Positions 7,625-58,192 of a stretch of DNA of 64,000 nucleotides are shown piece by piece. Made by a program: the position numbers and the translations under genes. Origin of the DNA: an uncultured Chloroflexia bacterium (lineage in GTDB: Bacteria; Chloroflexota; Limnocylindria; Limnocylindrales; CSP1-4). Within the stretch, counting starts at the first letter, position 1. Every line of letters starts with the position of its first letter. Under the pieces are notes generated by a model that saw nothing but the letters and a program-made list of their open reading frames with translations, did not search any database and was not told the DNA's origin. Location of the stretch: assembly GCA_963788375.1 (NCBI GenBank), contig CAWBGT010000027.1, forward strand, positions 679,020 through 743,019. The letters are read 5' to 3'.

Positions 7625-7745
7625 CGGCCGGCGCCACGCCCGAGGCTACGGCCGGCGCCACGCCGAGGCTACGGCCGGCGCCACGCCCGAGGCTACGGCC
7701 GGCGCCAGGGGCCGCCGGCGCCACGCCCGAGGCTACGGCCGGCGC
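7625..7745. repeat. Imperfect tandem repeat of a ~24 bp unit (GGCGCCACGCCCGAGGCTACGGCC), about 4-5 copies, intergenic.
   Basis: Seen directly in the sequence. It lies between the CGNR gene and the convergent LLM oxidoreductase gene. Confidence 0.7.
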
Positions 7746-7783
7746 CGCCGCCGCCGGCGCCACGGCCGGTGCCAACCCTGGAG

Positions 7784-12284: not shown

Positions 12285-12360
12285 TGGTGGAGCTAAAGGG
12301 ATTCGAACCCTTGACCTTCTGAATGCCATTCAGACGCTCTTCCAGCTGAGCTATAGCCCC
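12285..12360 (-). tRNA. tRNA-Ala (anticodon GGC), with encoded CCA.
   Basis: The cloverleaf was folded by hand: acceptor GGGGCUA with G3:U70, anticodon loop AUGGCAU, T-loop TTCGAAT. Confidence 0.9.
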
Positions 12361-17111: not shown

Positions 17112-18251
17112 TCACCCGCAGACGAACCGGTCGAGCCTGGCCGGCCCCGATGCCAGGATCTCGTCCAGGCGCCGGCGGACCGCGACCAGCGCCTCGGCCA
17201 TCGACGAATCCGCCGGCAGGTCGAGCCGCATGTCGGGATCGTTGGACAGCGGGTGCCAGAACCAGCCCAGCGCATCGCAGGTCAGCTCGGGTGCGACGTC
17301 CTGGGGCCGGATGGGCTCGCCCTCCGAAGCGGCTCCGCGCAGCGCGATCGGCCGGAAGATCCGGTCGTCGGGCCGGATGCCGAAGTCGTCCGCCAGGCGG
17401 TGGAGGTGCGGGATCTCGTCGAGCGCCTCCTCGGGCAACGATGCCGCGAGCCGGACGCGGGCCCCGGCATCGACCAGGGTCCGGATCCCGCGCAGGGCGC
17501 CGGCATGGGCACCGCGGCCACGGTGGGCGTCGTGGCGCTCCGGCGTCACGGAATCGAGGCTCACCTGGAAGGCGATCGGCCGGCCGGCATCGATCAGCGG
17601 CCGGATCCGGTCCCAGCGCGGTCCGCGGAGCAGCATCGCGTTGGTGAGCAGCGTCAGCGGCAGGCGATCGGTCACGTAGGCGATCAGGTCGGCGATGTCG
17701 GGCCGCAGCGTCGGCTCGCCGCCGGTCACGAACACTGCGTCCATGCCGGCCCCAACGGCCTCGTCCACCAGGGCGCGGATCCGAGCGTCCGACAGGCGTC
17801 GCGGGTCGGCCTTCGGACCGGCAACCACGCAGCAGTAGTCGCAGGCGAGGTTGCAGTCGTAGTTGGTGTACAGCCACAGGCGGGTGGGCATGAACGACTC
17901 GCCTTGCGACACCGCCACGACCGCCTCGGCCCCACCCTCGTGTGCGCCGTCCGCCGGCCAGTCCGTCCGCGCCGGCCCCTTGCGCAGGTAGTGGAGGGTC
18001 CACCCGGGCCGCTCGGGATCGGGGATCACCGACAGTAGCCCGTGACGGCTCACGGCCTCGAAGGTCTGGAGCTGCCCGGTGAGCCGGTCGCTGGGGCTGG
18101 CGATTCGCACGATCTGGCCGTCGCGGATGCCGAGCAGCGCCCGATGGAGCGGCAGCAGGAGCCCGGACTCCAGGTCGGCCTCCGGGTCCTCGACCATGGC
18201 ATGGACGGGCAGCGCCCGGCCGCCGCCGTAGTTGGCCGGGTCGGCGGTCAC
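17112..18251 (-). CDS. Radical SAM enzyme with a ~120-aa N-terminal extension of unknown function.
   Basis: CxxxCxxC motif 'YTNYDCNLACDYCCV'. Glycine-rich SAM motif 'VFVTGGEPTL'. Start overlaps the upstream methyltransferase stop. Confidence 0.7.
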   Translation of the reverse strand: MTADPANYGGGRALPVHAMVEDPEADLESGLLLPLHRALLGIRDGQIVRIASPSDRLTGQLQTFEAVSRHGLLSVIPDPERPGWTLHYLRKGPARTDWPADGAHEGGAEAVVAVSQGESFMPTRLWLYTNYDCNLACDYCCVVAGPKADPRRLSDARIRALVDEAVGAGMDAVFVTGGEPTLRPDIADLIAYVTDRLPLTLLTNAMLLRGPRWDRIRPLIDAGRPIAFQVSLDSVTPERHDAHRGRGAHAGALRGIRTLVDAGARVRLAASLPEEALDEIPHLHRLADDFGIRPDDRIFRPIALRGAASEGEPIRPQDVAPELTCDALGWFWHPLSNDPDMRLDLPADSSMAEALVAVRRRLDEILASGPARLDRFVCG

Positions 18252-18889
18252 GGTTCCTTCCGCTCGACGCGGCGGAAGGTCGAGTACTGGAACTGCTGGG
18301 GGATCCCCGCCGGCGTGTGGTGGAGATACCGGCGGCTGTCCACCAGCCGGAAGCCCTCGCCGAGCTCCGCCGCGAGCGCATCGGGCTCGTAGCGCTGGAC
18401 CGGCATGCCGCTGCAGCGCTCGGGACCGTCGTCCGCGAAGGTCGCGATGATGGCCGTGCCCCCGTCGGGGATCGTTCGCCGGGCCAGGTCGGCGTAGCGC
18501 CGCCGGGCGTCTGGATCCAGGAGGAAGTGGAACGCCGCACGGTCGTGCCAGATGTCAAAGGCCCCCACGTCGTCGAGGACGGATGCATCGCCCACGATCC
18601 AGGCGATCCGCCCGGCGCGGTCGCCGAGCCGGTGGCGGGCCAGCGTCAGGGCCGCCTCGGAGATGTCGAGGACCGCGATCCGGTCGAGGTCGAGCTCGAG
18701 GAGGTGGTCCACCAGCCAGGACGCACCGCCGCCGATGTCGATGATGCTGCGCGCCCCACGCTCGATGGCGGCCGCCACCAGCTCCCGCGAGTTGAACGGA
18801 TCCGGCTCGTACCAGCCGACACCGGTCATCTCGCGCGTGGCGTAGATCCAGTCCCACGCGCTCGCCGGGGCTGTGGCTTCCGAGGACAC
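18248..18889 (-). CDS. Class I SAM-dependent methyltransferase.
   Basis: Motif I 'IIDIGGGASWLVDHL'. GTG start is preceded by AGGGAG. Confidence 0.7.
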   Translation of the reverse strand: MSSEATAPASAWDWIYATREMTGVGWYEPDPFNSRELVAAAIERGARSIIDIGGGASWLVDHLLELDLDRIAVLDISEAALTLARHRLGDRAGRIAWIVGDASVLDDVGAFDIWHDRAAFHFLLDPDARRRYADLARRTIPDGGTAIIATFADDGPERCSGMPVQRYEPDALAAELGEGFRLVDSRRYLHHTPAGIPQQFQYSTFRRVERKEP

Positions 18890-18994: not shown

Positions 18995-19435
18995 CTAGCC
19001 CGGGTCGGACGCGGGCTCCACCGGGAGGCCCGCCGCGGCCCACGCCTCGAACCCGCCGACGACGTCCGTGGCTCGATCGAAGCCGAGGTCGCGAAGGGTG
19101 GCCGCGGCCAGGCTCGAGCTGTAGCCATGGGCGCACAGCAGGACGATCCGGGCCGCTGGATCGGAGAGGCGCGGATCGTCGTGGCCCGACGCCGGATCGA
19201 GGCGCCAGTACAGGACCGACCACGGGACGTGGATCGAACCCGGGACCACGCCGGTCTCCCGTCGCAGCTCCGCGCACCGGGTGTCGACCAGGATGGCCCC
19301 GTCGTCGGCCATCGCCTTGTGGACATCCGCCGGCTCGAGCCGGTCAAGCCGCGCCCGCGCGTCGGCCAGGAGGTCGTTCACGGTCCGCCGTCGGTTCGGT
19401 GGGCCCCCGGCTTCGGTCGGCCGGTTGTCGCTCAT
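18995..19435 (-). CDS. Single-domain rhodanese (sulfurtransferase).
   Basis: 'ILVDTRCAELRRETGVVPGSIHVP...IVLLCAHGYSSSLAA' with an active-site Cys in the CAHG loop. ATG at 19435 is preceded by GGAGGAGAGG. Confidence 0.75.
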   Translation of the reverse strand: MSDNRPTEAGGPPNRRRTVNDLLADARARLDRLEPADVHKAMADDGAILVDTRCAELRRETGVVPGSIHVPWSVLYWRLDPASGHDDPRLSDPAARIVLLCAHGYSSSLAAATLRDLGFDRATDVVGGFEAWAAAGLPVEPASDPG

Positions 19436-19691
19436 CGGTGCCTCTCCTCCAGGTTGCCCGGCATTGTGACCGCTCCGGGGATCGGTGGCCCGTCGAGGCG
19501 CACGATCGGGCGCTTGAAGAGGCCGGGGCCACCGGGATCGTCCGGGCGCGCGTGAACACCATCGGGTATTCGTGCGGACTGGAGGCGGTACTCCGGCCCG
19601 CGGATGTGGGCCGCACGGCTCCTGCCCGGCGTTCTCCGGCGTGCGAGCCTCAAGCCGCTTCTCAGGGCGTCGGCAGTCAGGAGATTCGAGC

Positions 19692-20075
19692 GTGGATGCC
19701 ATTGTCGGGCTAGCCGTGGTCGTGGGCCTCGCGGTCGTCGTGGCCTGGTTCGTGCTCTACCGGTGGAGCGGCGGCAGAGGGTCAGGCGACGTGGCCGCGG
19801 GAGCCGAGGAATGGGGCGACTTCCTCGTCCGGACCTACCGTGGGCACCAGCAGAGCGAGGCGATCGCGAGCTACGTGAAGGATGCGGAGACGCTCGCCCA
19901 GCGCGGCTATGCGCCAGCGGGCCAGAGCTGGGGCGACGGGCAGTGGGATGGTGGCACCTTCGTCATCGCGTTGATCCTCTCCTTGTTCGGGATCGGCCTC
20001 ATCGTGCTCGCCTACATGGCGATCATCAGGCCTGACGGAACGCTGTGCGTCACCTACCGGCTCGGGGCCACATAG
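19692..20075 (+). CDS. Small two-TM membrane protein (hypothetical).
   Basis: GTG start is preceded by AGGAGA. Hydrophobic helices 'IVGLAVVVGLAVVVAWFVLY' and 'FVIALILSLFGIGLIVLAYMAII'. Confidence 0.35.
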   Translation: MDAIVGLAVVVGLAVVVAWFVLYRWSGGRGSGDVAAGAEEWGDFLVRTYRGHQQSEAIASYVKDAETLAQRGYAPAGQSWGDGQWDGGTFVIALILSLFGIGLIVLAYMAIIRPDGTLCVTYRLGAT

Positions 20076-20200
20076 CCTCACGCCCATCCGACAGGCGGAG
20101 CAGCCGCTCGACGGTGCGCGCGCGCCCTTCCGGGATGGCGAGCACGACTTGGTGCCGCCCGCCGACGGCTCCTGACGTATCGGCCGCCAAGACTCGCACA

Positions 20201-20241
20201 CTGTTGTATTTCCACAACAGCACGCCTATTGTATGAATACA
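20201..20241. promoter_or_regulatory. AT-rich operator-like palindromes: CTGTTGT-N6-ACAACAG and TTGTAT-GA-ATACAA, sharing a TTGTAT half-site.
   Basis: Seen directly in the sequence. It is a local GC drop in a ~70% GC background, 45-85 bp upstream of the membrane-protein/XRE operon. Confidence 0.4.
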
Positions 20242-20284
20242 ACAGCCCACCGGGCTGATCACCCCCGCGGGGGAGGAGTGCGGC

Positions 20285-20932
20285 ATGGAGGCCTGGTTCC
20301 TCACGGCGATCTGCGTCGTCAGCCTGGTCGCGTTCGTGCGGAGCTCGGACCTTGTGCGCCGGTTCCTGCCCCGGCGCGATGCCACGGCCGAACCCGGTCG
20401 CTTCGAGCGATTCTGGTCGGGCGTGGACGGTCGGCTCCTGGCCGTCGGCTGGCTGGTGTTGTTCGCGCTCGCCATTGGCGATGCCGGCATGATCTGGAGC
20501 GAGACATGGAAGCCCGTGTTCGATGCGTTCCTCGTGCTCCAGCAGGTCGCCGCCGCCGCGCTCGTCCCGGTGACCGCCGGGCTCTACGTCTACAAGCGGG
20601 CGATCCCGCAGATTGCCCGTGAGGAGGCGGACGAGCGCGAGCGCGCGATCCAGGGCGACGTGTATCGGCGGGCCCACGGGATCGCCATCGGCGGGCTGGC
20701 GATCGGGTGCGCCCTGCTCGTCTTCAACCCGGCGATCGGCATCGGTCTGGCGCTCCACGCGGAGAGCCGTGGCGTCGAGCTCATCGACGTGCTCCTGCCG
20801 ACGTTCCTGCTGCTGTTCATGCTCCCGAGCGTCGCCTACGCCTGGATGAACCCGCAGCGCGACGACACCACGCCCGAGGCGCAGCGTGCGTCGCGCCTGA
20901 CGGGTTGGCTCGACCGAGCCACGGCGAGGTGA
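20285..20932 (+). CDS. Four-TM membrane protein (hypothetical), first gene of an operon with the XRE regulator.
   Basis: GGGGGAGGAG RBS. Hydrophobic segments. The stop overlaps the GTG of the next gene (GTGA). Confidence 0.5.
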   Translation: MEAWFLTAICVVSLVAFVRSSDLVRRFLPRRDATAEPGRFERFWSGVDGRLLAVGWLVLFALAIGDAGMIWSETWKPVFDAFLVLQQVAAAALVPVTAGLYVYKRAIPQIAREEADERERAIQGDVYRRAHGIAIGGLAIGCALLVFNPAIGIGLALHAESRGVELIDVLLPTFLLLFMLPSVAYAWMNPQRDDTTPEAQRASRLTGWLDRATAR

Positions 20933-21171
20933 CCGGCCGCAAGCCTGCGACCGAGGCACCGCTCCCGAACCGGATCGCCGACCTCCGCGAGACAGCGGGC
21001 ATGAGTCGTGTCGAGCTTGCCGAGCGGATCGGGGTCAATCCGCAGACCATCGGCTATCTCGAGCGGGGTGAGTACAACCCGAGTCTGGCGCTTGCCTTCC
21101 GCCTCGCCGAGCTCTTCGAGCTTCCGATCGAGCAGGTGTTCCTCCGGGACGGGGCACCCCACCGGACGTAG
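20929..21171 (+). CDS. XRE-family (Cro/C1-type) HTH transcriptional regulator, about 80 aa.
   Basis: 'RIADLRETAGMSRVELAERIGVNPQTIGYLERGEYNPSLALAFRLAELFELPIEQVF' is a canonical XRE HTH sequence. Confidence 0.7.
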   Translation: MTGRKPATEAPLPNRIADLRETAGMSRVELAERIGVNPQTIGYLERGEYNPSLALAFRLAELFELPIEQVFLRDGAPHRT

Positions 21172-21279
21172 CCAGACTCGCCACCGACCGGCGTCCGACG
21201 GTGCCGGGAAGTCTAGGCCGAGCGCCCTGCGCGGGCCCGTTGGTGTCTCTATGGGGCGGTTGCAGGCGCAATGACCGTG

Positions 21280-21310
21280 GCCGGGCTCCGTTGACAGCCG
21301 GGCTCCGTTA
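21280..21310. repeat. 13-bp direct repeat GCCGGGCTCCGTT x2 (4-bp spacer) abutting the truncated lepB 5' end.
   Basis: Seen directly in the sequence. Confidence 0.6.
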
Positions 21311-21317
21311 GGTCGTC

Positions 21318-21691
21318 GTGTTCCGCCCGCCCCCCGCCTGGACCGACCGGCCCGAGCCATACATCAAGCGCGTCATCGGAGTCGGCGGCGACACCGTCGA
21401 GGTCCGCGACGGCCGGGTCTCCGTGAATGGCATGGTGCTCGACGAACGCTATCTGTTCCGCAACGACGCCGGCGTGATCGAGCCGACCGAGGCCGGTGAC
21501 CAGGCCCGCTGGGTCGTGCCAGACGATGAGCTGTTCGTGATGGGTGACCATCGCCAGGTGTCGGCAGACAGTCGCTGTTCGGTTCGATCCCCGTCTCGTC
21601 CGTGATCGGGCGAGGGGTTGTCCGATACTGGCCACTCCCGGCGTTCGGGATCGCTGAGACTCCGTCCTATGCGAACGTCCCAGTCCCTTGA
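21318..21691 (+). pseudogene. lepB: Signal peptidase I (LepB) remnant. Only the C-terminal half is present, and it also carries a +1 frameshift near 21575.
   Basis: 'YIKRVIGVGGDTVEVRDGRVSVNGMVLDERYL...VPDDELFVMGDHRQVSADSR' corresponds to SPase I boxes D and E. The catalytic Ser/Lys N-terminal half is absent. The shifted frame continues 'LFGSIPVSSVIGRGVVRYWP'. Confidence 0.7.
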
Positions 21692-21990
21692 CGCGCGCCG
21701 GGGCGCTTGAACCAGCGCACAGCGGCCCCTGTCGTCGAGGCGGATCCCATCGCGCCCTTTCGGGGCGGCATCGACAGGTCGTCCCAGGGTCTCCCGCGGA
21801 TCGGCCACGTCCCACGTGACGTAAGGCACCCGTGTGCCACCAGCGCATTCTTTGAGGTACCGGGGGGAATCGCGGTGGGGCAGCCGCCGGATGGCGACAC
21901 GACGACGCGCGCCGAGGATGTGGACATCAGGAGTTGCCGGTCGCAATGGCCCCGAATGACGGGACCGAGCCGGCATCCAAGGAGGATCAG

Positions 21991-22401
21991 ATGTCCGCAG
22001 CCACCCGCACCGCACCCGCCAGCCCAGACATGCGCCGGGCCGGCGCCGCATTGGGTGCCCTCACCCTGGCGGCCGCACTCGTCATCGCCGCGGCGTTCAG
22101 CCAGGCGTCCTCGACGAAGTCCCAGGCCGCTCCCGCCGCCGGGTTGGCGGCGGGAGCTCACGACCACGGCTGGAGCACCGCGAGCTCATCCGACACCCTG
22201 GGCCGCCAGGAGCTCGTCGTCAGCGGCTCGAAGGCCGGTGGTCTCACCTACACGGGTATCCCGTACCCGGCGGCCGGCAGCGGCCAGGAGCTCGTCATCC
22301 GCGGCACCAACGGCGGCGGGCTCAAATTCACGGGCATCCCCAATCCGGCGGCCGGCAGCAGCCGTGCCGGTGGCGCGAACGGGACCCGCTTCGCCCAGTG
22401 A
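21991..22401 (+). CDS. Small secreted or membrane-anchored protein with an internal repeat (GGLxYTGIPxPAAGS).
   Basis: AAGGAGGA RBS. Signal/anchor 'LGALTLAAALVIAAAF'. Repeat 'GGLTYTGIPYPAAGSGQELVIRGTNGGGLKFTGIPNPAAGSS'. Confidence 0.45.
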   Translation: MSAATRTAPASPDMRRAGAALGALTLAAALVIAAAFSQASSTKSQAAPAAGLAAGAHDHGWSTASSSDTLGRQELVVSGSKAGGLTYTGIPYPAAGSGQELVIRGTNGGGLKFTGIPNPAAGSSRAGGANGTRFAQ

Positions 22402-22704: not shown

Positions 22705-24105
22705 TCAGGGTTCGACGATGACTCGCGCGTAGTACGGCACGCTGAACCGGTCACCATCCTTCGTGCCGGTGAGGTTCAAGCGCACGCTCCAATCGCCGGC
22801 GTCCGGCACATCGAAGGTGAACCCCTTGGCGGTCCGGCGGATTGCCAATGGCTGGCTTTCCGGGTTCCGGCCGCTGGGCAGCACATGGTCCTGCGCGGCA
22901 AGGGCACCGTTCACGCCATCGATCGTCCAGCCTTCGGTCAGCGACAGCGACACCGTCGATCCCGGCGCCGCGCGCAGCGCGCCGGCCACGGGCTGCCAGG
23001 AAGGCCCGCAGTCGTCGAAGAACCCGCCTCCCACCGCGGGTTGCCAGCCCAGGCCGCAGCCCGCATACGCCGACTGCTTGGACCCGGCACCCTTGCCCGC
23101 AGGCCCCTCGAGGGTCAGTTTCGGTGGGATCCAGGCGACGCCATCGGCGCGCTCCAGATCGCGTGCGATCACCTGGCCAGCCACCAGGGCCGAGCCCGTC
23201 GTCCAGGCGCGGATGTCGAGCCAGGTGTTGTCGGGCACGAACACCTCCGGGCCGAAGTCGGCGCAGGGATACACCGCACGCACCCCATCGATCTCGATCG
23301 TCACCTCACCATCGCCGGCGCACTGGCCGCTGACAAGGATGTCGTCGGTGCCTTCGGGCACGGCCACTCCCGTGTCAACCGGCCTGCTGGCGTCGCTCTC
23401 GAACCGCACCAGCGGTCTCTCGCCGGAGCCGGGCGAGGGCATCACGATTCCTGGCCCGGTGAAGCCTGAGGCATCCGGGGACGCGCCGTCTGCAAAGGGA
23501 TCCGCGATCACGATGCGCCACCGCATCCCCTTGGCGGCGATGACCACGACCTGCGCCTCGGCTGGTGGCGTCGCCGCAAACGGGTCGATCTGGGATGTGG
23601 AGGGGCCCTGCGCGGAGCAGGCGATGTGGTGGGTCCCCACCTCGGCGCCGTCGGCGCGCAGCATGACGATCAGGTCGCCACCCAGGCAGGAGGTGGACAG
23701 CTTCACCGACGGCGTGACCAGGACCGAACCCAGGTCAGTCTCAACGGCCTCGGCCGCGTCGCCGGGCGTCTCGCCCTCACCCTGGAGGGTCGCCGAGTCG
23801 ACCGGGCCGATCGCGGCGAGGAGGTCCTCATACGATGCCAGCGGGCGCTCTGACGGAGGTGATGACGGAGATCCACCGACCTCGATCGACTGGCTCGCCC
23901 GCCAGGCCCCGCCGACGATCACGAGAATGGCCAGCACCGCCGCCAGGCCCACGAGTGATGCCGGCAAGGCAAGACGCCTGCCCCCGCGCCGGCGCCTGGC
24001 CCGTTCGATGTCGTCCCAGCGGACGAGCAGCGGCAGCTGGCCGGCCTCGGCATGGAGGGCATCCCGTAGCCGTGCCTCCAGCCGCGGATCGAGCTCGTCA
24101 GCCAT
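22705..24105 (-). CDS. Anti-sigma factor-like membrane protein (short cytoplasmic N-terminus, one TM, large extracytoplasmic domain).
   Basis: It lies immediately downstream of, and overlapping, the ECF sigma gene. 'LALPASLVGLAAVLAILVIVGGAW' is the TM helix. GGGAGG RBS. Confidence 0.5.
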   Translation of the reverse strand: MADELDPRLEARLRDALHAEAGQLPLLVRWDDIERARRRRGGRRLALPASLVGLAAVLAILVIVGGAWRASQSIEVGGSPSSPPSERPLASYEDLLAAIGPVDSATLQGEGETPGDAAEAVETDLGSVLVTPSVKLSTSCLGGDLIVMLRADGAEVGTHHIACSAQGPSTSQIDPFAATPPAEAQVVVIAAKGMRWRIVIADPFADGASPDASGFTGPGIVMPSPGSGERPLVRFESDASRPVDTGVAVPEGTDDILVSGQCAGDGEVTIEIDGVRAVYPCADFGPEVFVPDNTWLDIRAWTTGSALVAGQVIARDLERADGVAWIPPKLTLEGPAGKGAGSKQSAYAGCGLGWQPAVGGGFFDDCGPSWQPVAGALRAAPGSTVSLSLTEGWTIDGVNGALAAQDHVLPSGRNPESQPLAIRRTAKGFTFDVPDAGDWSVRLNLTGTKDGDRFSVPYYARVIVEP

Positions 24106-24630
24106 GGGAGGCCTCCCGCGTCTCGCCGGCATCGCCGTTCCCGCCCATCGCCCGGCGCATGTGCGCCAGCGCCTCGCGGAGCTGGGTCTTCACGGTGTTC
24201 TCGCTGATCCCAAGCGCCTCGGCCACGTCACGTACTGACAGGTCAGCGTAGTAGCGCAGTACCACGGCAGCACGCATGCGCGGCGCGAGCCGGTCCACGC
24301 AGGACAGCAGGGTGAGGCGCTCGTCCTCGTCGGTCGGGCGCCCGGACGGTCCGGTACCACGCGGAGCTGGACGACGCGGGACGATGATCGCCGCACGCCG
24401 AGTGCCCGGTTGGTCGCGATGCGCAGGAGCCACGCCCGCAGCTTCTCCGGTTCCCGGAGCTGGTCGCCGCGATCGAGCGCGGTCAGCAAGGTGTCCACCA
24501 CCACGTCCTCCGCCGCCGCCCGATCCCGGAGGATCAGGTAGGCCACGCCCTGGATCTCGCGTCCGTACCGTGCCAGGAGGTCGTCGAGGACCTCGGGGCG
24601 GTGCTTGCGCAGGGCTTCCACGGTCATTGC
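24100..24630 (-). CDS. ECF (sigma-70 family) sigma factor with an apparent frameshift between region 2 and region 4 (~24330-24370).
   Basis: Region 2: 'DVVVDTLLTALDRG...LLRIATNRALGVRR' (frame of ORF 24190..24675). Region 4: 'ERLTLLSCVDRLAPRMRAAVVLRYYADLSVRDVAEALGISENTVKTQLREAL' (frame of ORF 24098..25066). Confidence 0.6.
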
Positions 24631-24797
24631 GTGCTGTTCCCCAGCAGGATCGGCGGCATTGGGCGACCGCCTCACAGGGTAGATGCACGGGCGCGACGAA
24701 TTGGGTGACCCGCGCCACCGCTACGATCCATCGCATGGCAACTGACGTCTCGACCGGCGCGTGAACCCGCGGACAGTGGCCCCAATCGTCGAGACGG

Positions 24798-25556: not shown

Positions 25557-25650
25557 AATCGAGGGCCCCGGGAGGGAACCATTTCGGGCGGCTCGCGCGT
25601 CACAGGGGCGCACACAACGCAGCTGCCCACATTGATCCATTCGAGGTTCC

Positions 25651-26307
25651 ATGGCCCCGCGCTTGTTCCTGATCATCGCCACCGCCGCGCTTGTCGCCGC
25701 AGGCTGTGGCAGCGCAACCGGCTCGCCTGTTCCGCCGGCGTCGTCCGCCCCGAGCGTGCCGGTTCCCACCCTGACGCCGGTCCCCGTGCCGTCCCTGCCG
25801 GCCGTCGAGGGCCCGAAGGCTTCGCCCGTGATGGGCGACGTGGATGGAGCCGCCAAGGGCCCGCAACTGACCATCGAGACCGTCGATGCGTCCACCATTC
25901 AGGCCACCATCCAGGACCCTGGGGCCAAGGCCTGGCGCCTGGTGGTCTCGGGCACGGGTGAGCAGGGCGGGGACCGCTGGGAGATCGTCGTGGAGACCGG
26001 CGACGTGGCCCCGGACATCACGGCCACCGAGGTCCGCGACGGCCAGGTCGTGGACGTGATGGACCTGTCGGGCTTCTACGACGGGACCGCGGTGGCGGGC
26101 GGCTGCCACTCCTCGTTGCCCGTGTGCCTGGACTCGGCCGGGTTCGTGCTCCCGCACGACGGCAACGGCCTGTTCTCGGCCCGGCTGGAGCTGCCCGAGG
26201 CGCAGGTGCCGCTCGTGATCCGCGGCGGAACCGCCGGGTGGGAGTCGGAGCCATTCATCCTGGGGCCGTGGCACGACACCGACCCGTTCCCGTGGGGCGA
26301 GGGCTGA
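25651..26307 (+). CDS. Lipoprotein (hypothetical).
   Basis: Signal peptide with lipobox 'LVAAGC', followed by a Pro/Ser/Thr linker. Confidence 0.5.
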   Translation: MAPRLFLIIATAALVAAGCGSATGSPVPPASSAPSVPVPTLTPVPVPSLPAVEGPKASPVMGDVDGAAKGPQLTIETVDASTIQATIQDPGAKAWRLVVSGTGEQGGDRWEIVVETGDVAPDITATEVRDGQVVDVMDLSGFYDGTAVAGGCHSSLPVCLDSAGFVLPHDGNGLFSARLELPEAQVPLVIRGGTAGWESEPFILGPWHDTDPFPWGEG

Positions 26308-35400: not shown

Positions 35401-36531
35401 CCGGCGCAGTTCACCGTCGGGCTGGTCAATGCGCAGCCGATGGGCTTCTACCCCGTCGAGGTGCTGGTCAACGACGCGAAGCGCCACGGGGTCGCGGTCC
35501 TCCCGGTGGACGTCAACCGGAGCTCGTATCGCACGACGACCGAGTGGGTCGGCCGCCCCGGCTGGGCGCTGGCGGGGCCCGCAGGCGATGACGGCTCGTC
35601 CGACCGGGATGCCGGCGAGGCACTGCCCGACGGGTGCGGGATCGACGCCCGCCCGACCCCGGTGCGCTCGAGCGCGTGCGTGATCCCCGGCGCGGCGGCG
35701 CGGGAACGCTGGGCCGCCGAGAGCATGACCGGCTGGGGGGTCCGCATCGGGCTGCACCTGGTCAAGGGGATCGGCGAGGAGCACCAGGCGCGCCTGGACG
35801 CGGAGCTGGCTCGCGGGCCCTACACGGACCTGGCCGACTTGGTCGAGCGGACGGGCCTCGCCGAGGACGTTGTGGAGCGCCTGATCCGGGCGGGTGCACT
35901 GGATTCGCTGGGACGTCCTCGCCGGGAGCTGCTGTGGCAGCTGCGCGAGGTGGCCGGGGCGGCGAAGGGACGCGTGGACGGGAAGAGGCGGGGCCCGAGA
36001 GGGATCACGCGAGCCGCGGGCCGGCCGGTGGACCTGCGCCTGCCCGCCACGGAGGCGCCGGCGCTCCCGGCGTTCACGGAGCCAGAGCGCTTGGGAGATG
36101 CCTACGCCGTGGTGGGGCTGGACGCCCGGCGCCAGGTCGTGGCGCTGTTCAGGGGTGCGCTGGACCGGATGGGCGCCGTGCCCAACGCGGCGCTGGCGGA
36201 CCGGCGCCCGGGAAGGGTCCTTCTCGGCGGACTCGTGGTCACGCGGCAGCACCCGATGACGGCACGAGGCACCGTGTTCCTTGCGCTGGAGGACGAGACG
36301 GGCATGGTCAACGTCACGCTCTGGCCCAATACATGGCAGCGGCTTCGCTCCGTCGTCCGGCGCCACGCGCTGCTGCTGGTGGACGGGGACCTGCAACGGG
36401 AGGGCGAGGTCGTGAACGTCGTGGCGCGGGAGGTGCGACCGCTGGTCGAGGCCGCCTCGGAGGCAGGCGGGCCCTCCTCACCGGCAGGGGTCCGCCAGAT
36501 GGGCCAGGCGGGGATGCGGCGCCTCGGCTAG
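32404..36531 (+). CDS. dnaE2: Error-prone DNA polymerase III alpha-like subunit DnaE2 (ImuC), with long low-complexity insertions.
   Basis: PHP domain 'ELHCHSHFSFLDGAS'. Pol III alpha core ('IERTGLAEFFLICWDLMQFAKSRGI', 'PDVDIDF'). OB-fold C-terminus. LexA box upstream. Confidence 0.9.
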   Translation: MAPPPYAELHCHSHFSFLDGASAPDDLVAQAVELGLAGLAITDHQGLYGAVRFSAAAEAAGLRPVIGIEVELVDAAVPDPAGIVVPARRAWKPGRRAPVQPEAPRVIDGRPVRPRPERARLPGHRQVVKEDHRGVGEAQRGPHLVLLARDATGWRSLCRLVSRANLAGTKAVPGFSQALLAEHAEGLIALSGCRHGEVARRLRAGDREGARAVAERYAVLYGPRGTGGGRGTSGGMGAAGGAAGGPAAAGFVLELTHHLLPDDDWLASETARLAEELGLPVVVTNDVHYALPEGRELQDVLTAIRHGRSLSDLADLRRPDGESYIKGAPELLALPPGEPATEAADPVLARAWRAGIAASVEIAAACRVELAFERYRFPGFAVPKGQTPFSHLSELCWEGARRRYHPLTPAVLRQLAHELDVIERTGLAEFFLICWDLMQFAKSRGIPAQGRGSAAGSIVTYVLGIARVDPIRHELLFERFINEGRTAYPDVDIDFSSERREEVIQYVYEKYGPEHTGMVCNLVTYRARSAVREVGRALGFPGPLVDRVAKALETYDSVMVRRDLEAEGGFGAFFAQPGEGTGGGTGGGPSDAVRGSRRVVAELEVARAAALTGERGLTDSMGQLNHARGGRLGMDLAAASGTWAGAPGSAPAIRPGGRADDEGGPGDTPASVAWLRAGRGTGSSVARIGPEPVKVPDPAPDSVPDPARHEGSVAGLSDWERWLELCARIDGFPRHLSIHSGGMLVTAAPLIDIAPIERATMPGRVVVQFDKRDVETMKLIKLDLLGLGMLAAIDETVQLIEHDCAVCLDLDRLPEEVPEVFAMLQAADTVGVFQVESRAQMQTLPKSRPASLDDLVVEVAIIRPGPIQGNAVHPYLRRKQGLEPVTYLHPSLEPILHDTLGVILYQEQVMKIAIDVAGFTPAGSDGFRRAMGTYRSAGEMERLHVEFVEGCRRVHGIPPDDAEELFRRCAAFASFGFAKSHAAAFARTAYESSFLKLFYPAQFTVGLVNAQPMGFYPVEVLVNDAKRHGVAVLPVDVNRSSYRTTTEWVGRPGWALAGPAGDDGSSDRDAGEALPDGCGIDARPTPVRSSACVIPGAAARERWAAESMTGWGVRIGLHLVKGIGEEHQARLDAELARGPYTDLADLVERTGLAEDVVERLIRAGALDSLGRPRRELLWQLREVAGAAKGRVDGKRRGPRGITRAAGRPVDLRLPATEAPALPAFTEPERLGDAYAVVGLDARRQVVALFRGALDRMGAVPNAALADRRPGRVLLGGLVVTRQHPMTARGTVFLALEDETGMVNVTLWPNTWQRLRSVVRRHALLLVDGDLQREGEVVNVVAREVRPLVEAASEAGGPSSPAGVRQMGQAGMRRLG

Positions 36532-36995
36532 GGCCCGAACCCCACATCTCCGGCCGCTTGATGCGGCACCGGTTCAGCCAGGGCCCGAACCGCGCATCCC
36601 TTGCCGCCTGATGCGGCACCGGTTCAGCTAGGGCCCGAACCGCGCATCTCCGGCCGCTTGATGCGGCACCGGCTCAGGAGCGCATCCCTTGCCGCCTGAT
36701 GCGGCACCGGTTCAGCCAGGGCCCGAACCGCGCATCCCTTGCCGCCTGATGCGGCACCGGTTCAGCCAGGGCCCGAACCGCGCATCCCTTGCCGCCTGAT
36801 GCGGCACCGGTTCAGGAGCGTATCCCTTGGACGCCTGATGCGGCACCGGTTCAGCCAGGGCCCGAACCGCGCATCCCTTGCCGCCTGATGCGGCACCGGT
36901 TCAGGAGCGTATCCCTTGCCGCCTGATGCGGCACCGGTTCAGGAGCGCCCGAACCGCGCATCCCTTGCCGCCTGATGCGGCACCGGCTCAGGAGC
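36531..36995. repeat. Tandem array of ~11 copies of a 38-nt hairpin-containing repeat (GCGCATCCCTTGCCGCCTGATGCGGCACCGGTTCAG; stem TGCCGC/GCGGCA). Copies are joined alternately by a 12-16-nt connector (CCAGGGCCCGAACC) or a short GAGC connector.
   Basis: Seen directly in the sequence. The array starts at the dnaE2 stop codon and lies between convergent genes. Stop codons occur in all frames. Confidence 0.85.
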
Positions 36996-37118
36996 GCATC
37001 CCGCAAGCGTGGCTGGACCCGGGAAAGGGCACCTCGTGCCCGCGCTCACGCTCGCCGGTTGCCGTGCTGAGTCAGGCGCGCATCCGCGCATCAGCGGCCA
37101 CGGCCACGTCCGCGGCAT

Positions 37119-38154: not shown

Positions 38155-41100
38155 ATGGCGCGTGTCCGTCTCGCGGCGTTTGCCGCCTTCCTCGTCGTCC
38201 TGCTGTTTGGCGCGGCCGCGTGGCCCTCGGCGCCCCGGGTTCGCCTGGTTCCACTGGCGCCGGTGGCCGCCGTGGGATGGCCACCGTCGGGGGGCCTCGT
38301 GGTCGCCGAGGTCGTGACGGGTGGCGCATCCGCATCGGACGAGTTCGTCGAGCTCGCCAACATCGGGCCGGGCGTCGTCGACCTCGCCGGCCTCGAGGTC
38401 GCGTACGTCACCAGCTCCGGTGCGACCGTCACGCGCAAGGCCGCGTGGACGACCACGATCGTCGTGGATCCGGGTCGTCGCGTCCTGCTCGCGAACGGCG
38501 CCGGGCTCTATGCGGCCGTTGCCGATGCCACCTACTCGGGTGGGCTCGCGGCCACGGGCGGGGCGATCGTCCTGCGGCCCACCGGCGGGACCGCCATCGA
38601 TGCCGTGGGCTGGGGTGACGCAGGCAATGCCTATGTCGAGGGAGCGCCAGCACCGGCCCCGGGTGCGGGTCAATCGATCGAGCGTGGTCATGCTGACACG
38701 AACGACAACGCGGCCGACTTCGTCATCAACGCTGCCCCGGCGGCTCAGGGGCTGTCCTGGGTCCCCACGCCGACGCCGACCACTGCTCCGACGCCCACGC
38801 CTGCCCCGACACCGACAGCGGTCCCCACGCCGACGCCCACGCCTGCCCCGACACCGACAGCGGTCCCCACGCCGACGCCGACCACTGCTCCGACGCCCAC
38901 GCCTGCCCCGACACCGACAGCGGTCCCCACGCCGACGCCGACCACTGCTCCGACGCCCACGCCTGCCCCGACACCGACAGCGGTCCCCACGCCGACGCCC
39001 ACGCCTGCCCCGACACCGACAGCGGTCCCCACGCCGACGCCCACGCCTGCCCCGACACCGACTCCAACCCCGTTGCTCCCCATCTCTGCGGCTCGTGCGC
39101 TGCCCGATGGGTCGCTCGCGCTCGTCGAGGGGATCCTCACCACGGCCCTTGGCACCATCGAGTCGGGGCACGTCGGCTTCGTGCAGGACGGAACCGGCGG
39201 TATCGCGGTCTACCTTGACTCGGCCCTCGGCGAGCCAGTCCCCGCCGGAACCCTGGTGCGCCTCGTCGGAACGCTCGACTCGCGGTACGCGCTGCGAACG
39301 ATCCGCGTCTCATCGGCCGACGTGACCGTTGTCGGCCCCGACAGCCTGCCCACGCCCGTGGCAATTCCAACCCGTGATGCTGCAGAGCAGTACGAGGGGC
39401 TCCGGATCACGCTCCGGGGCACGGTGACAGAGGCGCCATCGGCGCTGAGCGACGGCCTGGGATTGATGATCGATGACGGTTCCGGGTCCGTCCGCGTGAT
39501 CGTCGGTCCAGACGCGCTGGGCGATGTGACCCCGTCGACGGGCGCGGTAGTGACCGCAGTTGGTCCCCTCGGCCAGCGTGACAGCGGCGGGACGGGTCTC
39601 GCCGGCTACCGCCTGCACGCGACCCTGCCGGGAGAGCTCGCGGTCGATCCGCCGGCCCCAAGCCCGACGCCCAGCCCGACGGCGAGCGCATCGCCAGGCG
39701 CCAGCTCGAGCCCGACGCCCAGCCCGACGGCGAGCGCATCGCCAGGCCCCAGCTCGAGCCCGACGCCCAGCCCGACGGCGAGCGCATCGCCAGGCCCCAG
39801 CTCGAGCCCGACGCCCAGCCCGACGGCGAGCGCATCGCCGGCCCCGAGCCCCACGGCGTCGCCATCCGCCACCGACGGTCCTCCCGCCACTGCCTCTCCG
39901 AGCCCTGAGCCGTCGACGGCTCCGCTTGCGATCGGCGCTGCCCGCCGCGAGGCCGAGGGAGCGGTCGTTCTCACTCGAGGCGTCGTGATCGCCGAGGCCG
40001 GCCGCCTCGGCACGCCACCCCTGCTTGCGATCGGTGACGCGACGGGCGGGCTGCCGGTGAGGCTCACTGATGGTCAGGCGCCTCCGGCCCGCGGCACGCT
40101 CGTCGAGGTCCGCGGCAAGCTCGCAGCGCCGTACGGCCAGACCGAGCTTCGGCCGTCAACCGGCGGTCTGGTCGCACTCGGGACGGCGCCGGTTCCGGCG
40201 CCCGTCGCACTCGAAGCCCGCGCGGTCGGGGAGGCAACGGAGGGTCTGCTGGCCACGGTCAAGGGCACGATCTCGTCGGGCGCGACGAAGGCCACGAGCG
40301 GGGACCTGTCGTTCTCGATCACTGGCACCGACGGCGGCATCTTGCGGATCCATGCCGACGCCTCCGCGGGACTGGATCGGAGCATGCTCGGCAAGGGCGC
40401 CACGGTGACGCTGACCGGGATCGTGGGCCAGCGCGCCACACGGAAGGGAGCGCTCGATGGCTACCGCCTGTGGGTCCGCGACGGCGCCGACGTCGTGGCG
40501 AAGCCAGGACCGTCGTCCTCCCCCGGGCCGTCGGCGTCCCCAACGGCGTCCGCTGGGACGGTGCCGCTCCTCACCATCGCCGCAGCTCGTCTGAGGGATG
40601 GCAGGCGCGTGACGGTCGAGGGGACGGTGACGGTGGAACGCTCGCTCCTTGACTCGTCCGGCCGCCGGACCATCCTCGAGGACGGCACCGCGGCAGTCGA
40701 GCTGTACCTGGACAGGCCGGACGCTGCGATCAGGACCGGCGCCAGGGTCCGCGCCACCGGTGTGATCGGCCGTGCATGGGGCGCGCCGCGTCTGCGCGTC
40801 GATGCGATCCGCGTGCTCGGCAAGCGGGAACCTGTCGTGCACGACCTCAAGGTGGCCCCGACCGCGGCAACGGAGTGGCGCCTGATCCGCATGCGGGGGA
40901 CGCTGGCCGAAGTCCACCGGTCCGGCGACCGCTGGACGGCTGAACTCGTGACCGGTAACGGCCGCGTGCCGCTGGTGGGCCTCTCGGGCAGTGCCGTGAA
41001 GGTGGATAAGGTGATCGAGGGCCGCACGGCGACGGTGACCGGGATCGTGAAGCGGGCCTACCCCACCGCCAAGGACCAGCGCTTCGGCATCGTGCCAAGG

Positions 41101-41787
41101 GTAGCGGCGGACCTGGCCCTCGGCCCGGCGACGGCGACAGCCTCCGGCGCGCCAGCCCACGGCGAAGGAGCGCCCGGTTCCCCCGTGCCGGGTGTCACCG
41201 GGTCCGCGTCATCCGACGCCCCCGCCCCCGCCGGTCCGGACATTCCGCTCTCCGATCTCGGCGGGCACCTCGGCACGACCGTGCGCGTTGGAGGTCTGGT
41301 CACGGCCGTCGAGGTGGGGTCAGTCCGGCTGGACGACGGTACGGCGACCGCCGCGATCATCCTCGAGGCTGACGCTGCGGACCTGCTCGCCCTGCTGCAG
41401 CCTGGCGACGCGCTCAACGCCACCGGCACCCCGGAGGCCCGTGACGGCGTCGTGCTCGTGGTCACGGACCCCGCCGGTGTCGTCCTCCTTGGCGACCTGG
41501 AGGGCGGTGGGGAGGAGCCATCGGGCGAACCGGGGCTCCTCCTCGCCACCACGACGGCCAACGAAGACGACCGCCCGGACGCGGGCCTGCTCGGGGCAGC
41601 CATGGTCGCCCGTCGCGGTTCCGACCCACTGCCCGCGATCGTGGCCGCGTTGGTCCTCGCCGTCCTCATCGCCGCCGGGGTGCTGGCCCAGCGTTCCGTG
41701 CGAACCCGTCGTGCGCTGCGCGCGCGGATCGAGGCCCGCGTGGCCGCAATCGCGGACCCCGTGCCGGGCCCATCTGGCGGGTCCTGA
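38155..41787 (+). CDS. Large cell-surface protein: signal peptide, lamin-tail domain (LTD), Pro/Thr linker repeats, about four OB-fold-like ~180-aa domains, acidic stretch, and a C-terminal TM anchor.
   Basis: LTD: '[32 protein letters not shown]...[20 protein letters not shown]'. ([14 protein letters not shown])n and ([16 protein letters not shown])n linkers. C-terminal '[28 protein letters not shown]'. Confidence 0.65.
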
Positions 41788-48122: not shown

Positions 48123-48848
48123 CTACGCGTCCTTCTTGGCCTTGGTCGTCTTCGGCGCAGCCTTCGCGGCCGCCGGCTTGGCGGTCGCGGCCATGGTCGT
48201 CGTCTTCGCGGCCGCCTTGGTTGCGGTCGCCTTCGGCGCAGCCTTGGTTGCGGTCTTGGCGGTCGAGGTCTTGGCGGTCGCGGTCTTGGCGGTCGCCTTG
48301 CTCGCAGTCTTCGCGGCGGCCTTCGGCGTGGCCCTGGTGGTCTTCGCGGCGGGTGCATCCGCGGCCGACGCGGCGGCCGGAGCGGACTCGGCTCGGGTGG
48401 TCTTGCTCAGCGCGGCGCGGGCCTTGCCGGCGGCGGTCTGGGCGCCCTTGGCCTTGACGGCCTTGCCGGCGGCGATGCGGGCTTTCGCGGCCTTCGCGGC
48501 GGCGGCCTTGCCGGTGGACTTGGTGACGTGGCCGGTGCCGGCAGCGGTCGCGCCGGCGGTGGCTGCGTTCACCTTGATCACGAGGCGGCTCTTGCGGCGG
48601 GCGGCCGCGTTGGGATGGATCGCGCCGGCCTTCGCGGCGCGGTCGAGGGCCGAGATGGCCGCGCTCAGCGAGGTCGCGATGTCCGCGCTCTCGGGCTGGG
48701 CGGTGGCGACCGTGACGGCCTTGGCAACGAGGGTCTTCGCCGCGGACCGACGGGGCTGCAGGATCGCGTGCCGGCGCTCAGCCTGGCGGACGCGCTTCAG
48801 CCCGGACGGGTTGCGAGCGCCCTGCCATTTCCGGGGCGTTCTAGCCAA
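48123..48848 (-). CDS. rpsT: 30S ribosomal protein S20 fused to a ~150-aa Ala/Lys/Thr-rich C-terminal extension.
   Basis: 'LKRVRQAERRHAILQPRRSAAKTLVAKA...AAKAGAIHPNAAARRKSRLVIKVNAA' aligns with bacterial S20. The frame remains open through (A/K/T)-rich repeats to a stop at 48123, followed by a terminator. Confidence 0.75.
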   Translation of the reverse strand: MARTPRKWQGARNPSGLKRVRQAERRHAILQPRRSAAKTLVAKAVTVATAQPESADIATSLSAAISALDRAAKAGAIHPNAAARRKSRLVIKVNAATAGATAAGTGHVTKSTGKAAAAKAAKARIAAGKAVKAKGAQTAAGKARAALSKTTRAESAPAAASAADAPAAKTTRATPKAAAKTASKATAKTATAKTSTAKTATKAAPKATATKAAAKTTTMAATAKPAAAKAAPKTTKAKKDA

Positions 48849-56332: not shown

Positions 56333-56380
56333 CCGTCCCGGCAACGGTGGCGCAGACACGAACCGCTACACTCCCGCCTC

Positions 56381-58192
56381 GTGACCATCCCCCAGTCCCG
56401 CCTGCGCAACTTCTCGATCATCGCGCACATCGATCACGGCAAGTCCACGCTCGCCGACCGCCTGCTGGAGCTGACCCACACGATCGAGGGCCGGCAGATG
56501 ATGAGCCAGGTCCTGGACTCCATGGACCTGGAGCGCGAGAAGGGGATCACGATCAAGGCCCGCGCCGTCCGGCTGGAGTACACCGCCGATGACGGCCTCG
56601 TCTACGGGCTCAACCTGATCGACACCCCCGGGCACGTTGACTTCGCCTACGAGGTCAGCCGCAGCCTGCAGGCCTGCGAGGGCGCGATCCTCGTGGTGGA
56701 TGCCGCCCAGGGCATCGAGGCCCAGACGCTGGCCAACGTCCACCTCGCCCTGCGCGAGGGGCTGACGATCATCCCGGTCCTCAACAAGATCGACCTCCCG
56801 TCGGCCCAGCCGGATGTCGTGATGGAGGAGCTGGAGAACGTCCTCGCCATCCCCCGCGAGGAGGTCATCCTCGCCTCGGCCAAGGAGGGCACCGGCGTCC
56901 CGGAGATCCTGGAGGCGATCGTCGCCCGGATTCCGCCGCCCAGGGGCGATCCCGCGGCTCCCGTGCAGGGGCTCGTGTTCGACAGCCACTACGACCCCTA
57001 CAAGGGCGTGGTCTGCTACGTGCGGCTCGCGGGCGGCACGCTCCACGACCACGACGTCATCCGCCTGATGGCCAGCGGCGCCGAGGCAGAGCTCCTGGAG
57101 CTGGGTGTGTTCCGCCCGCAGCTCGTGCCGGTGAACAGCCTGGTCGCGGGAGAGGTCGGTTACGTGGCCACCGGCCTCAAGAACGTCCGCGAGGCACAGG
57201 TGGGCGACACCGTGACCACCGTCGTGAAACCGGCCAGGGAACCGCTGCCCGGGTACCAGGAGGCCAAGAGCCTCGTGTTCGCGGGCCTCTATCCGCTCAG
57301 CGGACCGGACTACCCGCTACTCCGGGACGCGATGGAGAAGCTTCACCTCAACGATGCCTCGTTCACCTACGAGCCCGAGAGTTCCGTCGCCCTTGGCTTC
57401 GGGTTCCGGTGCGGCTTCCTTGGGCTGCTCCACATGGAGATCGTCCAGGAGCGGCTGGAGCGGGAGTTCAACCTCGACCTGATCGCGAGCGCGCCGTCCG
57501 TGGAGTACCGGGTCGAGCTGACGATGGGCCGGGGCGTGGTGGCCGTGGACAACCCGGCGAAGTTCCCGGACGTCGGCGAGATCGAGGCGATCGAGGAGCC
57601 CTGGGTGAAGCTGGGCATCGTGACCCCGGATCGCTACATCGGCTCGCTCATGGAGCTCACGACGGGCCGCCGCGGCAGCTTCGAGAACATGGAGTACCTG
57701 GACCCCCAGCGGGTCCACATGCACTTCGAGCTGCCGCTGGCCGAGCTGATCGTGGACTACTACGACCAGCTCAAGAGCCGCACGCAGGGCTACGCGTCAA
57801 TGGACTACGAGGAGACGGGGTACCGCGCGGCCAACCTGGTCAAGCTCGACGTCCTCGTCAACGGGGAGCCGGTCGACGCCCTGAGCCTGATCGTCCATCG
57901 CGATCGAGCCCAGGTCACGGGGCGCCAGCTGGCGGCCAAGCTCAAGCAGCTGATCCCGCGCCAGATGTTCGAGGTGCCCGTCCAGGCGGCGGTCGGCAGC
58001 CACGTCGTCGCGCGCGAGACCATCCGGGCCATGCGCAAGAACGTCCTCGCGAAGTGTTACGGTGGCGATATCACCCGCAAGCGGAAGCTGCTCGAGAAAC
58101 AGAAGGAAGGGAAGCAGCGGATGAAGCGCGTGGGATCCGTGGAGATCCCGCAGGAGGCGTTCCTCGCGATCCTGCGCATGGGCGAGGAATGA
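56381..58192 (+). CDS. lepA: Elongation factor 4 (LepA).
   Basis: '[20 protein letters not shown]', 'DTPGHVDF', 'LNKID'. C-terminal '[23 protein letters not shown]'. Confidence 0.95.

Follow-up and report, generated by a model that had tools for sequence, protein, structure and literature searches.

A truncated signal peptidase I gene beside a lineage-conserved membrane protein and XRE regulator operon in an uncultured Chloroflexia bacterium

In a stretch of 64,000 nt from an uncultured Chloroflexia bacterium (assembly GCA_963788375.1, contig CAWBGT010000027.1, positions 679,020 to 743,019), referred to below as the window and numbered from its first nucleotide, the genes for a 215-aa membrane protein and an XRE-family regulator are followed by a 3' fragment of lepB, which encodes type I signal peptidase (SPase I). 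The initial annotation had regarded this block as the probable remnant of a genomic island. Our analysis points instead to two unrelated neighbours, namely, a native operon and a lepB pseudogene created by a recent, single break through illegitimate recombination, a reading to which we assign a probability of about 0.68. The GC content over the 64-kb window is ~72%, and the closest homologs of both lepB and the membrane protein come from metagenome-assembled genomes (MAGs) labelled 'Candidatus Limnocylindrales' or 'uncultured Chloroflexia', which places the window in a Limnocylindria-like soil Chloroflexota.

The lepB remnant and its breakpoint

The fragment is readily recognizable as part of an S26 peptidase gene. 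Positions 21312-21602 match the Pfam Peptidase_S26 model (PF10502) at profile positions 60-150 of 168 (E = 1.9e-23; 83.7 bits, with a cut-off of 22.9), and an nhmmer search with a DNA profile of 12 orthologs aligned 21307-21688 of the window to model positions 206-591 of 597, with a single 1-nt gap after 21575. The remnant corresponds to residues ~89-213 of the orthologs, which are 213-214 aa long when intact. Its closest ortholog, in locus L087 (protein P0001, intact, 213 aa), shares 85% amino acid identity with it over 126 residues and ~87% nucleotide identity from AGGTCGTCGTG (21310) to a common TGA stop at 21689-21691, and the 2 loci are unrelated beyond both ends. The homology breakpoint is sharp and lies at 21309/21310: in ungapped, anchored comparisons with 7 orthologs, identity is 0.72-0.86 over the 30-90 nt downstream of 21310 and falls to 0.20-0.33 over the 30-90 nt upstream, where the random background is 0.29 ± 0.06. 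An 11/18 match to locus L001 upstream of 21310 was considered as residual lepB homology and rejected, as it is not repeated in the 6 other orthologs and identity there is at background.

Intact orthologs read ...VQNFVAQPF.V..HSMERTF.EGDYVLVDRLT.RWSPYARGQ/VVVFQPPP...YIKRVIGVGGD...GDHRQVSADSR.FG.IPVSSVIGRGVVRYWP..., and the window starts at the slash. Thus, ~88 N-terminal residues with the membrane anchor, the box B serine nucleophile ('HSMERTF') and the start of box C are absent, whereas the remnant still has box D ('YIKRVIGVGGD', 21357-21389), with the lysine general base, as well as box E ('GDHRQVSADSR'). Directly after box E, a 1-nt deletion at 21575/21576 shifts the reading frame for the final 37 codons; the tail past this point runs in the next frame to the TGA and keeps the C-terminus found in orthologs. 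Just before 'VVVF', an in-frame TAG (21309-21311) takes the place of the CAG (Gln) of the orthologs. The initial annotation was correct in describing a real lepB fragment that is both truncated and frameshifted, but the fragment ends at 21691 rather than at about 21700, and the catalytic half has not been lost as a whole: only the serine half of the dyad is gone, the lysine box and box E being kept.

Compared with a functional SPase I, the remnant lacks the anchor and the serine and its frame is broken, whereas the lysine box, box E and the match to the S26 profile are present. It belongs to S26A by descent and not as a working member; that is, it is a pseudogene. Because a stop lies directly upstream, the anchor and the serine are missing and the frame is shifted, the remnant is predicted to be incapable of producing an active enzyme, and the 95-aa open reading frame (ORF) deposited for this contig as a 'signal peptidase' should be annotated as a fragment of a pseudogene. 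The missing 5' part is not nearby: a tblastn search of the whole window for it returned only noise (best E ~0.04), and no second S26 gene was found in the 64 kb.

lepB in related genomes

For the comparison of gene order, we assembled 81 lepB loci from genome_contigs and 80 from metagenome_contigs. Neither these loci nor any relative in the protein-context index share flanking genes with the window, and intact lepB orthologs have no shared gene order even among themselves; the best lepB relatives, with 76-86% protein identity, are non-syntenic. On the right flank, the 475-aa anti-sigma-like protein has its best match, with 65% identity, next to a PIN toxin-antitoxin pair and not next to lepB. 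An arrangement with a partial lepB conserved in relatives, which the initial annotation had named as the observation that would argue for an ancestral partial duplication, was not encountered. In ~45 related loci, lepB is full-length except in copies cut by contig ends and in 3 frameshifted ones, so that the truncation is specific to this lineage. Furthermore, related genomes carry 2 lepB paralog types each (L001 and L010 in OY970218.1; L005 and L012 in MFD02416.bin.1.295), and the loss of one copy would therefore plausibly be tolerated in the present genome as well.

Elsewhere in the window, at ~56333-58189, there is a gene resembling lepA (elongation factor 4, EF4) that is 57-59% identical to the lepA adjoining lepB in other phyla (L041, L074 and L164); no S26 gene follows it in the window.

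The junction repeat

As initially noted, a 13-bp direct repeat lies immediately 5' of the truncation point, in the arrangement GCCGGGCTCCGTT-GACA-GCCGGGCTCCGTT. The copies, at 21280-21292 and 21297-21309, are 4 nt apart and, contrary to the earlier description, do not flank the lepB fragment but form a tandem pair wholly upstream of it, with the last base of the second copy being the last base before lepB homology begins. The rest of the window contains no further copy, nor do related loci totalling 1.9 Mb, and readings of the 13-mer as a dispersed element or a binding motif were therefore rejected. The chance expectation for a close exact repeat of at least 13 nt is 0.34 per 64 kb (Markov-1 simulations), and the window contains 33 such repeats, nearly all within larger tandem arrays. 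By contrast, the chance that the end of a repeat falls exactly on the homology breakpoint is roughly 2e-4, as estimated from the repeat simulation. The significant point is the position of the repeat at the breakpoint, not its existence.

The pair does not fit attachment sites or a target-site duplication, because these would flank an insert, nor a simple repeat-mediated deletion, because this would leave a single copy. We infer that the second copy is a short templated insertion made when the 2 ends were joined.

The left side of the junction is a unique non-coding spacer that separates the stop codon of the XRE gene from the repeat. It shows no homology to the DNA 3' of the XRE gene in 4 relatives, and nothing similar to it occurs elsewhere in the window or across the 1.9 Mb of sequence from related loci. 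A structured RNA element was considered for this spacer and rejected (no Rfam match; folding equal to that of shuffled sequences, z = +1.07), and a search of the spacer for a consensus promoter or terminator found neither.

Age and authenticity of the break

The remaining lepB codons are undecayed. Nei-Gojobori ratios of nonsynonymous to synonymous substitution rates (dN/dS) between the remnant and 7 intact orthologs are 0.125-0.20, compared with 0.15-0.36 for pairs of intact genes; in a three-point partition with L087 and L001, the dN of the window branch is ~0.03, below that of both intact branches; and at columns otherwise agreed in 74 homologs, the remnant has 0 private replacements. Accordingly, either the break is recent relative to the split from the closest ortholog known (dS ~0.6), or a long-read error produced the frameshift.

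The low dN/dS would also be expected if the fragment were a functional truncated paralog, a non-catalytic C-terminal S26 domain translated from the internal GTG at 21318, and inactive SPase I paralogs do exist, SpsA of Staphylococcus aureus being one example. A recent break, however, explains the low ratio equally well, and the local sequence speaks for the break: a stop lies directly upstream, no Shine-Dalgarno sequence precedes 21318, the domain would stay in the cytoplasm with neither anchor nor signal peptide, and the conserved C-terminal 37 residues are, because of the frameshift, out of frame with this GTG. Moreover, apart from cuts at contig ends, the ~45 relatives include no comparable short form. 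We consider a functional paralog highly improbable.

A different concern is that the break is a product of assembly, that is, a chimeric join at 21309/21310 in a long-read metagenome assembly combined with an indel error, the real lepB being intact. The proteins of the window itself trace to a single NCBI/ENA contig of 1,239,055 bp, the remnant is otherwise pristine, and the nearest genomes are Nanopore MAGs; many of the MAGs with the nearest homologs belong to the Microflora Danica long-read project (PMC12313526), from which the window probably also derives. In addition, lepB is frameshifted in 2 of ~16 loci from similar long-read MAGs (L022 and L031). A chimeric join by itself, however, would not yield a 13-nt local duplication, composition and codon usage are equal on the 2 sides of the junction, and the protein database contains no intact, near-identical lepB of this assembly. 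Indeed, no protein in the database exceeds 85% identity to the remnant even though the contig's own proteins P0080 (the 95-aa lepB ORF) and P0121 (the 215-aa protein) are included, so the remnant was not recently copied, in part, from an intact gene of this assembly. On balance, an artefactual origin of the whole arrangement is unlikely. The 2 parts differ in this respect: an artefactual frameshift alone is quite plausible, at somewhat less than even odds, and an artefactual truncation much less so.

Otherwise intact lepB genes with 1 or 2 frameshifts were found in 3 of the related loci, L022 (10001-10385) and L031 (9799-10376), both from long-read MAGs, and L113 (1178-1812), from a JGI (Joint Genome Institute) contig. 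These frameshifts are probably consensus indel errors and call for caution with every frameshift call from this data source.

Predicted operator, membrane protein and XRE regulator

The membrane protein, the XRE regulator and the AT-rich operator of the initial annotation are all present upstream of the junction. The operator consists of 2 imperfect palindromes of 20 nt, CTGTTGTATTTCCACAACAG (20201-20220) and CTATTGTATGAATACAACAG (20226-20245), which share the core TTGTATnnATACAA, are spaced 25 nt centre to centre and lie just 5' of the Shine-Dalgarno sequence and ATG of the 215-aa gene. Both TTGTATnnATACAA palindromes are kept at about −82 and −57 in the 6 related loci that were scanned and, by alignment, in L084, and the DNA farther 5' of the operator is unrelated among relatives. 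A small hairpin, CAGCCC-nnn-GGGCTG (20246-20260), lies between the second palindrome and the Shine-Dalgarno sequence and is kept in L082-L085, L168 and L170.

The 215-aa protein belongs to a small family confined to one lineage, with 94 homologs among 5.8 billion proteins, all of which are at least 44% identical to it over the best local alignment. It has no match in Pfam, NCBIfam, PADLOC or PHROGs, and within the gene pair only the generic helix-turn-helix (HTH) domain of the XRE protein is matched (HTH_3, PF01381; residues 15-67, E = 8.3e-15, 55 bits with a cut-off of 23). The AlphaFold model of the 215-aa protein is all-helical and of low confidence (predicted local distance difference test, pLDDT, 63; predicted template modelling score, pTM, 0.44). 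The 2 genes are predicted to be translationally coupled, because the GTG start of the XRE gene overlaps the TGA stop of the membrane protein gene by 4 nt (GTGA). In all 7 loci examined, the XRE gene follows the membrane protein gene with an overlapping start, with protein identities of 64-87%, and the 4-nt overlap also appears in the gene calls of L082, L083 and L085. At the nucleotide level, 20202-21171 is 77-85% identical to 4 related contigs, each alignment beginning at the first base of the operator and stopping with the XRE stop codon, so that the homology of this cassette to its relatives stops 138 nt before the lepB junction. Together, operator, membrane protein gene and XRE gene form a lineage-conserved and presumably autoregulated operon of Limnocylindria-like Chloroflexota. 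In this scheme, the repressor and the 215-aa protein would be translated together, and the repressor would shut its own operon by binding the 2 TTGTATnnATACAA palindromes.

The neighbours of the cassette are different in every relative examined. In 2 more distant relatives, L168 (1884-3277 and 11220-12645) and L170 (1094-2529 and 4559-6141), AbiEi/AbiEii, PhdYeFM/PIN and ribbon-helix-helix (RHH)/PemK modules surround it, which suggests a preference of the cassette for variable regions rich in defence genes. Because of the varying neighbours and of the AbiE and toxin-antitoxin genes that adjoin it in these 2 relatives, 20202-21171 might be viewed as a self-contained relocating module, for example, a membrane-toxin/XRE-antitoxin or phage-exclusion pair, whose arrival broke lepB. 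Such variability is not diagnostic, however, because lepB, a housekeeping gene, likewise lacks conserved neighbours among its orthologs in this set of genomes. No phage, restriction-modification, defence or toxin model matching the 215-aa protein was found for the pair. We regard a relocating module as improbable.

The second membrane protein of the block, of 127 aa, has hydrophobic segments at its N- and C-termini. Its gene has a codon-position GC content of 0.66/0.49/0.88, which is of the coding type, and an AGGAG 8 nt before the GTG start. It has no Pfam, NCBIfam, PHROG or PADLOC match, and its homologs comprise 624 representative sequences at E ≤ 1e-3, of which 354 are at E < 1e-10; the best is 89% identical and aligns from residue 1. 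Consequently, the earlier block start at 19572 is probably wrong, since 19572-19691 has a non-coding codon-position GC pattern and this homolog aligns from the start at 19692. The gene is not linked to the operator-membrane-XRE cassette in the relatives examined, and its product is a member of a widespread uncharacterised family, separate from the conserved cassette. The shared domain of this family is the C-terminal ~80 residues of the 127-aa protein, has no Pfam model and is followed by a SHOCT domain in several of the longer homologs.

Evidence concerning a genomic island

The island proposed initially would be a mobile membrane/XRE block that inserted in lepB, later lost its integrase and left the 3' part of lepB at its border. 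The position of the lepB break on the downstream side of the cassette agrees with such an origin, as do the changing neighbours of the cassette and the AbiEi/AbiEii and toxin-antitoxin modules around it in 2 relatives. However, the absence of an integrase or transposase, which the initial annotation had reported, extends to all genes checked between 9.5 and 27.5 kb, where no integrase, recombinase or transposase was recognized among LeuRS (leucyl-tRNA synthetase), an epimerase/glycosyltransferase fusion, DoxX, the radical SAM (S-adenosylmethionine), methyltransferase and rhodanese genes, the operon, the anti-sigma-like and extracytoplasmic function (ECF) sigma factor genes, YgjP and EamA; within the same range, a 223-aa ORF at 25636-26304 has no Pfam match. 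Transfer RNA genes are located at 12285, 26384 and 26473, and no tRNA segment of at least 13 nt recurs elsewhere in the window, except between the 2 tRNA-Ala genes, leaving no tRNA-derived direct repeat. The base composition is native: the GC content at third codon positions (GC3) is 0.84-0.91 in every ORF of 19.7-24.1 kb, as in the neighbouring genes (0.90-0.92 in the left flank), and the local GC content of 0.63-0.72, compared with ~0.72 elsewhere, represents a mild dip in intergenic DNA.

The structure of the junction also differs from that expected of an island. The block is not an insert between lepB halves, because the 5' half is present neither within the 21 kb upstream nor elsewhere in the 64 kb; cassette homology ends at the XRE stop, short of the junction; the repeat copies, 4 nt apart, are a misfit for attL/attR or a target-site duplication; and, as discussed above, variable neighbours carry little diagnostic value. 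The island reading is thus not supported, having no positive evidence, and only a small probability can be attached to it. Of the initial proposal that an insertion or deletion broke lepB, a rearrangement at the repeat is retained, on the basis of the drop in identity at 21309/21310, and the insertion of an island is not.

A scenario for the locus

Collectively, the observations are best accommodated by 2 unrelated neighbours that are adjacent by chance. A single non-homologous event, either a deletion or a larger rearrangement, would have cut the bacterium's copy of one of the 2 SPase I paralog types known from related genomes within codon ~88, removing its promoter, membrane anchor and serine nucleophile and joining the rest of lepB to DNA located 138 nt 3' of the XRE gene. 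The 13-nt insertion at the junction may have been copied from 17 nt upstream by templated fill-in or slippage, as is seen where ends are joined non-homologously or replication switches template. By analogy with related genomes, the essential activity is presumably provided by a second, more distantly related lepB paralog located outside the window, on which the organism probably relies.

Several points weigh against this reading. The 13-nt repeat could predate the break rather than being a templated product of it. The event may have been a deletion, an inversion or a translocation, as no relative shares the gene order. An assembly artefact would account equally well for the undecayed state of the remnant, the 1-nt deletion at 21575/21576 may be a long-read consensus error, and the frameshifted lepB copies of similar long-read MAGs point in the same direction. 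Finally, repression by the XRE protein at the palindromes is deduced from their conservation and position.

The broken gene has little significance beyond annotation. Read as above, the junction would be a clean, naturally occurring non-homologous breakpoint that carries a short templated duplication, from a phylum little studied so far, and the operon defines an uncharacterised, lineage-restricted membrane protein family with a well-conserved predicted operator.

Relationship to known systems

The remnant resembles LepB/SipS (MEROPS S26A, PF10502) in keeping box D, box E and 85% identity to an intact ortholog, and differs from them in lacking the anchor, the box B serine and the start of box C and in being frameshifted. 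It also resembles the 5'-truncated pseudogenes that illegitimate recombination or deletion leaves in bacterial genomes, with which it shares one sharp breakpoint within coding sequence, the loss of promoter and start, a short duplication at the junction and the absence of mobile-element genes; unlike the single microhomology copy left by simple repeat-mediated deletion, the junction here has a 13-nt copy, putatively templated, and a 4-nt spacer. SpsA of S. aureus is a full-length, membrane-anchored and expressed protein with substituted catalytic residues. Like SpsA, the remnant is an S26-derived sequence unable to cleave signal peptides that would exist beside an active paralog, but it is a fragment, truncated, frameshifted and devoid of start signals, rather than a full-length anchored protein. 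SpsA and SpsB have been studied together (PMC12414704).

The operon, in turn, is reminiscent of autoregulated XRE/Cro operons, such as the Cro-cI modules of phages 434 and P22 and the C-proteins of restriction-modification systems, in having a small HTH_3 protein and 2 predicted, dyad-symmetric sites 25 nt apart 5' of its own operon, the operator being conserved here along with the genes. It differs from them in the partner, an uncharacterised 215-aa membrane protein encoded 5' of the regulator.

Features of the locus and further repeats

The coordinates of the features discussed, together with those of the flanking genes, are compiled in Table 1.

Table 1. Features of the lepB junction and its surroundings in the window.
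Feature	Coordinates	Strand	Basis or remark
Radical SAM gene	17112-18251	minus	
Methyltransferase gene	18248-18889	minus	
Rhodanese gene	18995-19435	minus	
Small membrane protein gene (127 aa)	19692-20075	plus	Coding-type GC pattern, AGGAG before GTG, homologs
Predicted operator, 2 imperfect 20-nt palindromes	20201-20245	strandless	Palindrome scan and conservation in relatives
Multi-helix membrane protein gene (215 aa), first of operon	20285-20932	plus	GC3 0.91, homologs
XRE/Cro-C1-type HTH regulator gene (80 aa)	20929-21171	plus	HTH_3 match
Unique non-coding spacer, XRE stop to repeat (left side of junction)	21172-21279	strandless	
Junction repeat	21280-21309	plus	2 copies of GCCGGGCTCCGTT separated by GACA
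lepB (S26 type I signal peptidase) 3' remnant	21310-21691	plus	Pfam S26, nhmmer profile of orthologs
Predicted secreted repeat protein gene (136 aa)	21991-22401	plus	
Anti-sigma-like protein gene (475 aa)	22705-24132	minus	
ECF sigma factor gene	~24193-24720	minus	

The gene directly 3' of the lepB remnant encodes a 136-aa predicted secreted protein with an RR-containing, signal-like N-terminal segment. It carries an internal tandem duplication of 78 nt (26 aa) at 22202-22357, with the 2 units being 79% identical, and had no family match in profile scans.

Tandem repeats are also present elsewhere in the window. An intergenic array at 36530-37000, which begins directly after the stop of a 1375-aa ORF, consists of ~10 units with a period of 39/50 nt, each unit being roughly AGGGCCCGAACCGCGCATCCCTTGCCGCCTGATGCGGCACCGGTTCAGCC and containing a small inverted repeat, CGCATC..(11 nt)..GATGCG. 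Other tandem repeats, with periods of 24-102 nt and some of them Pro/Thr-rich, lie at 7625-7750, 38760-39062, 39661-39845 and 48160-48460. The array at 38760-39845 is inside a long ORF (38155-41787), and the remaining arrays are assumed to be coding.

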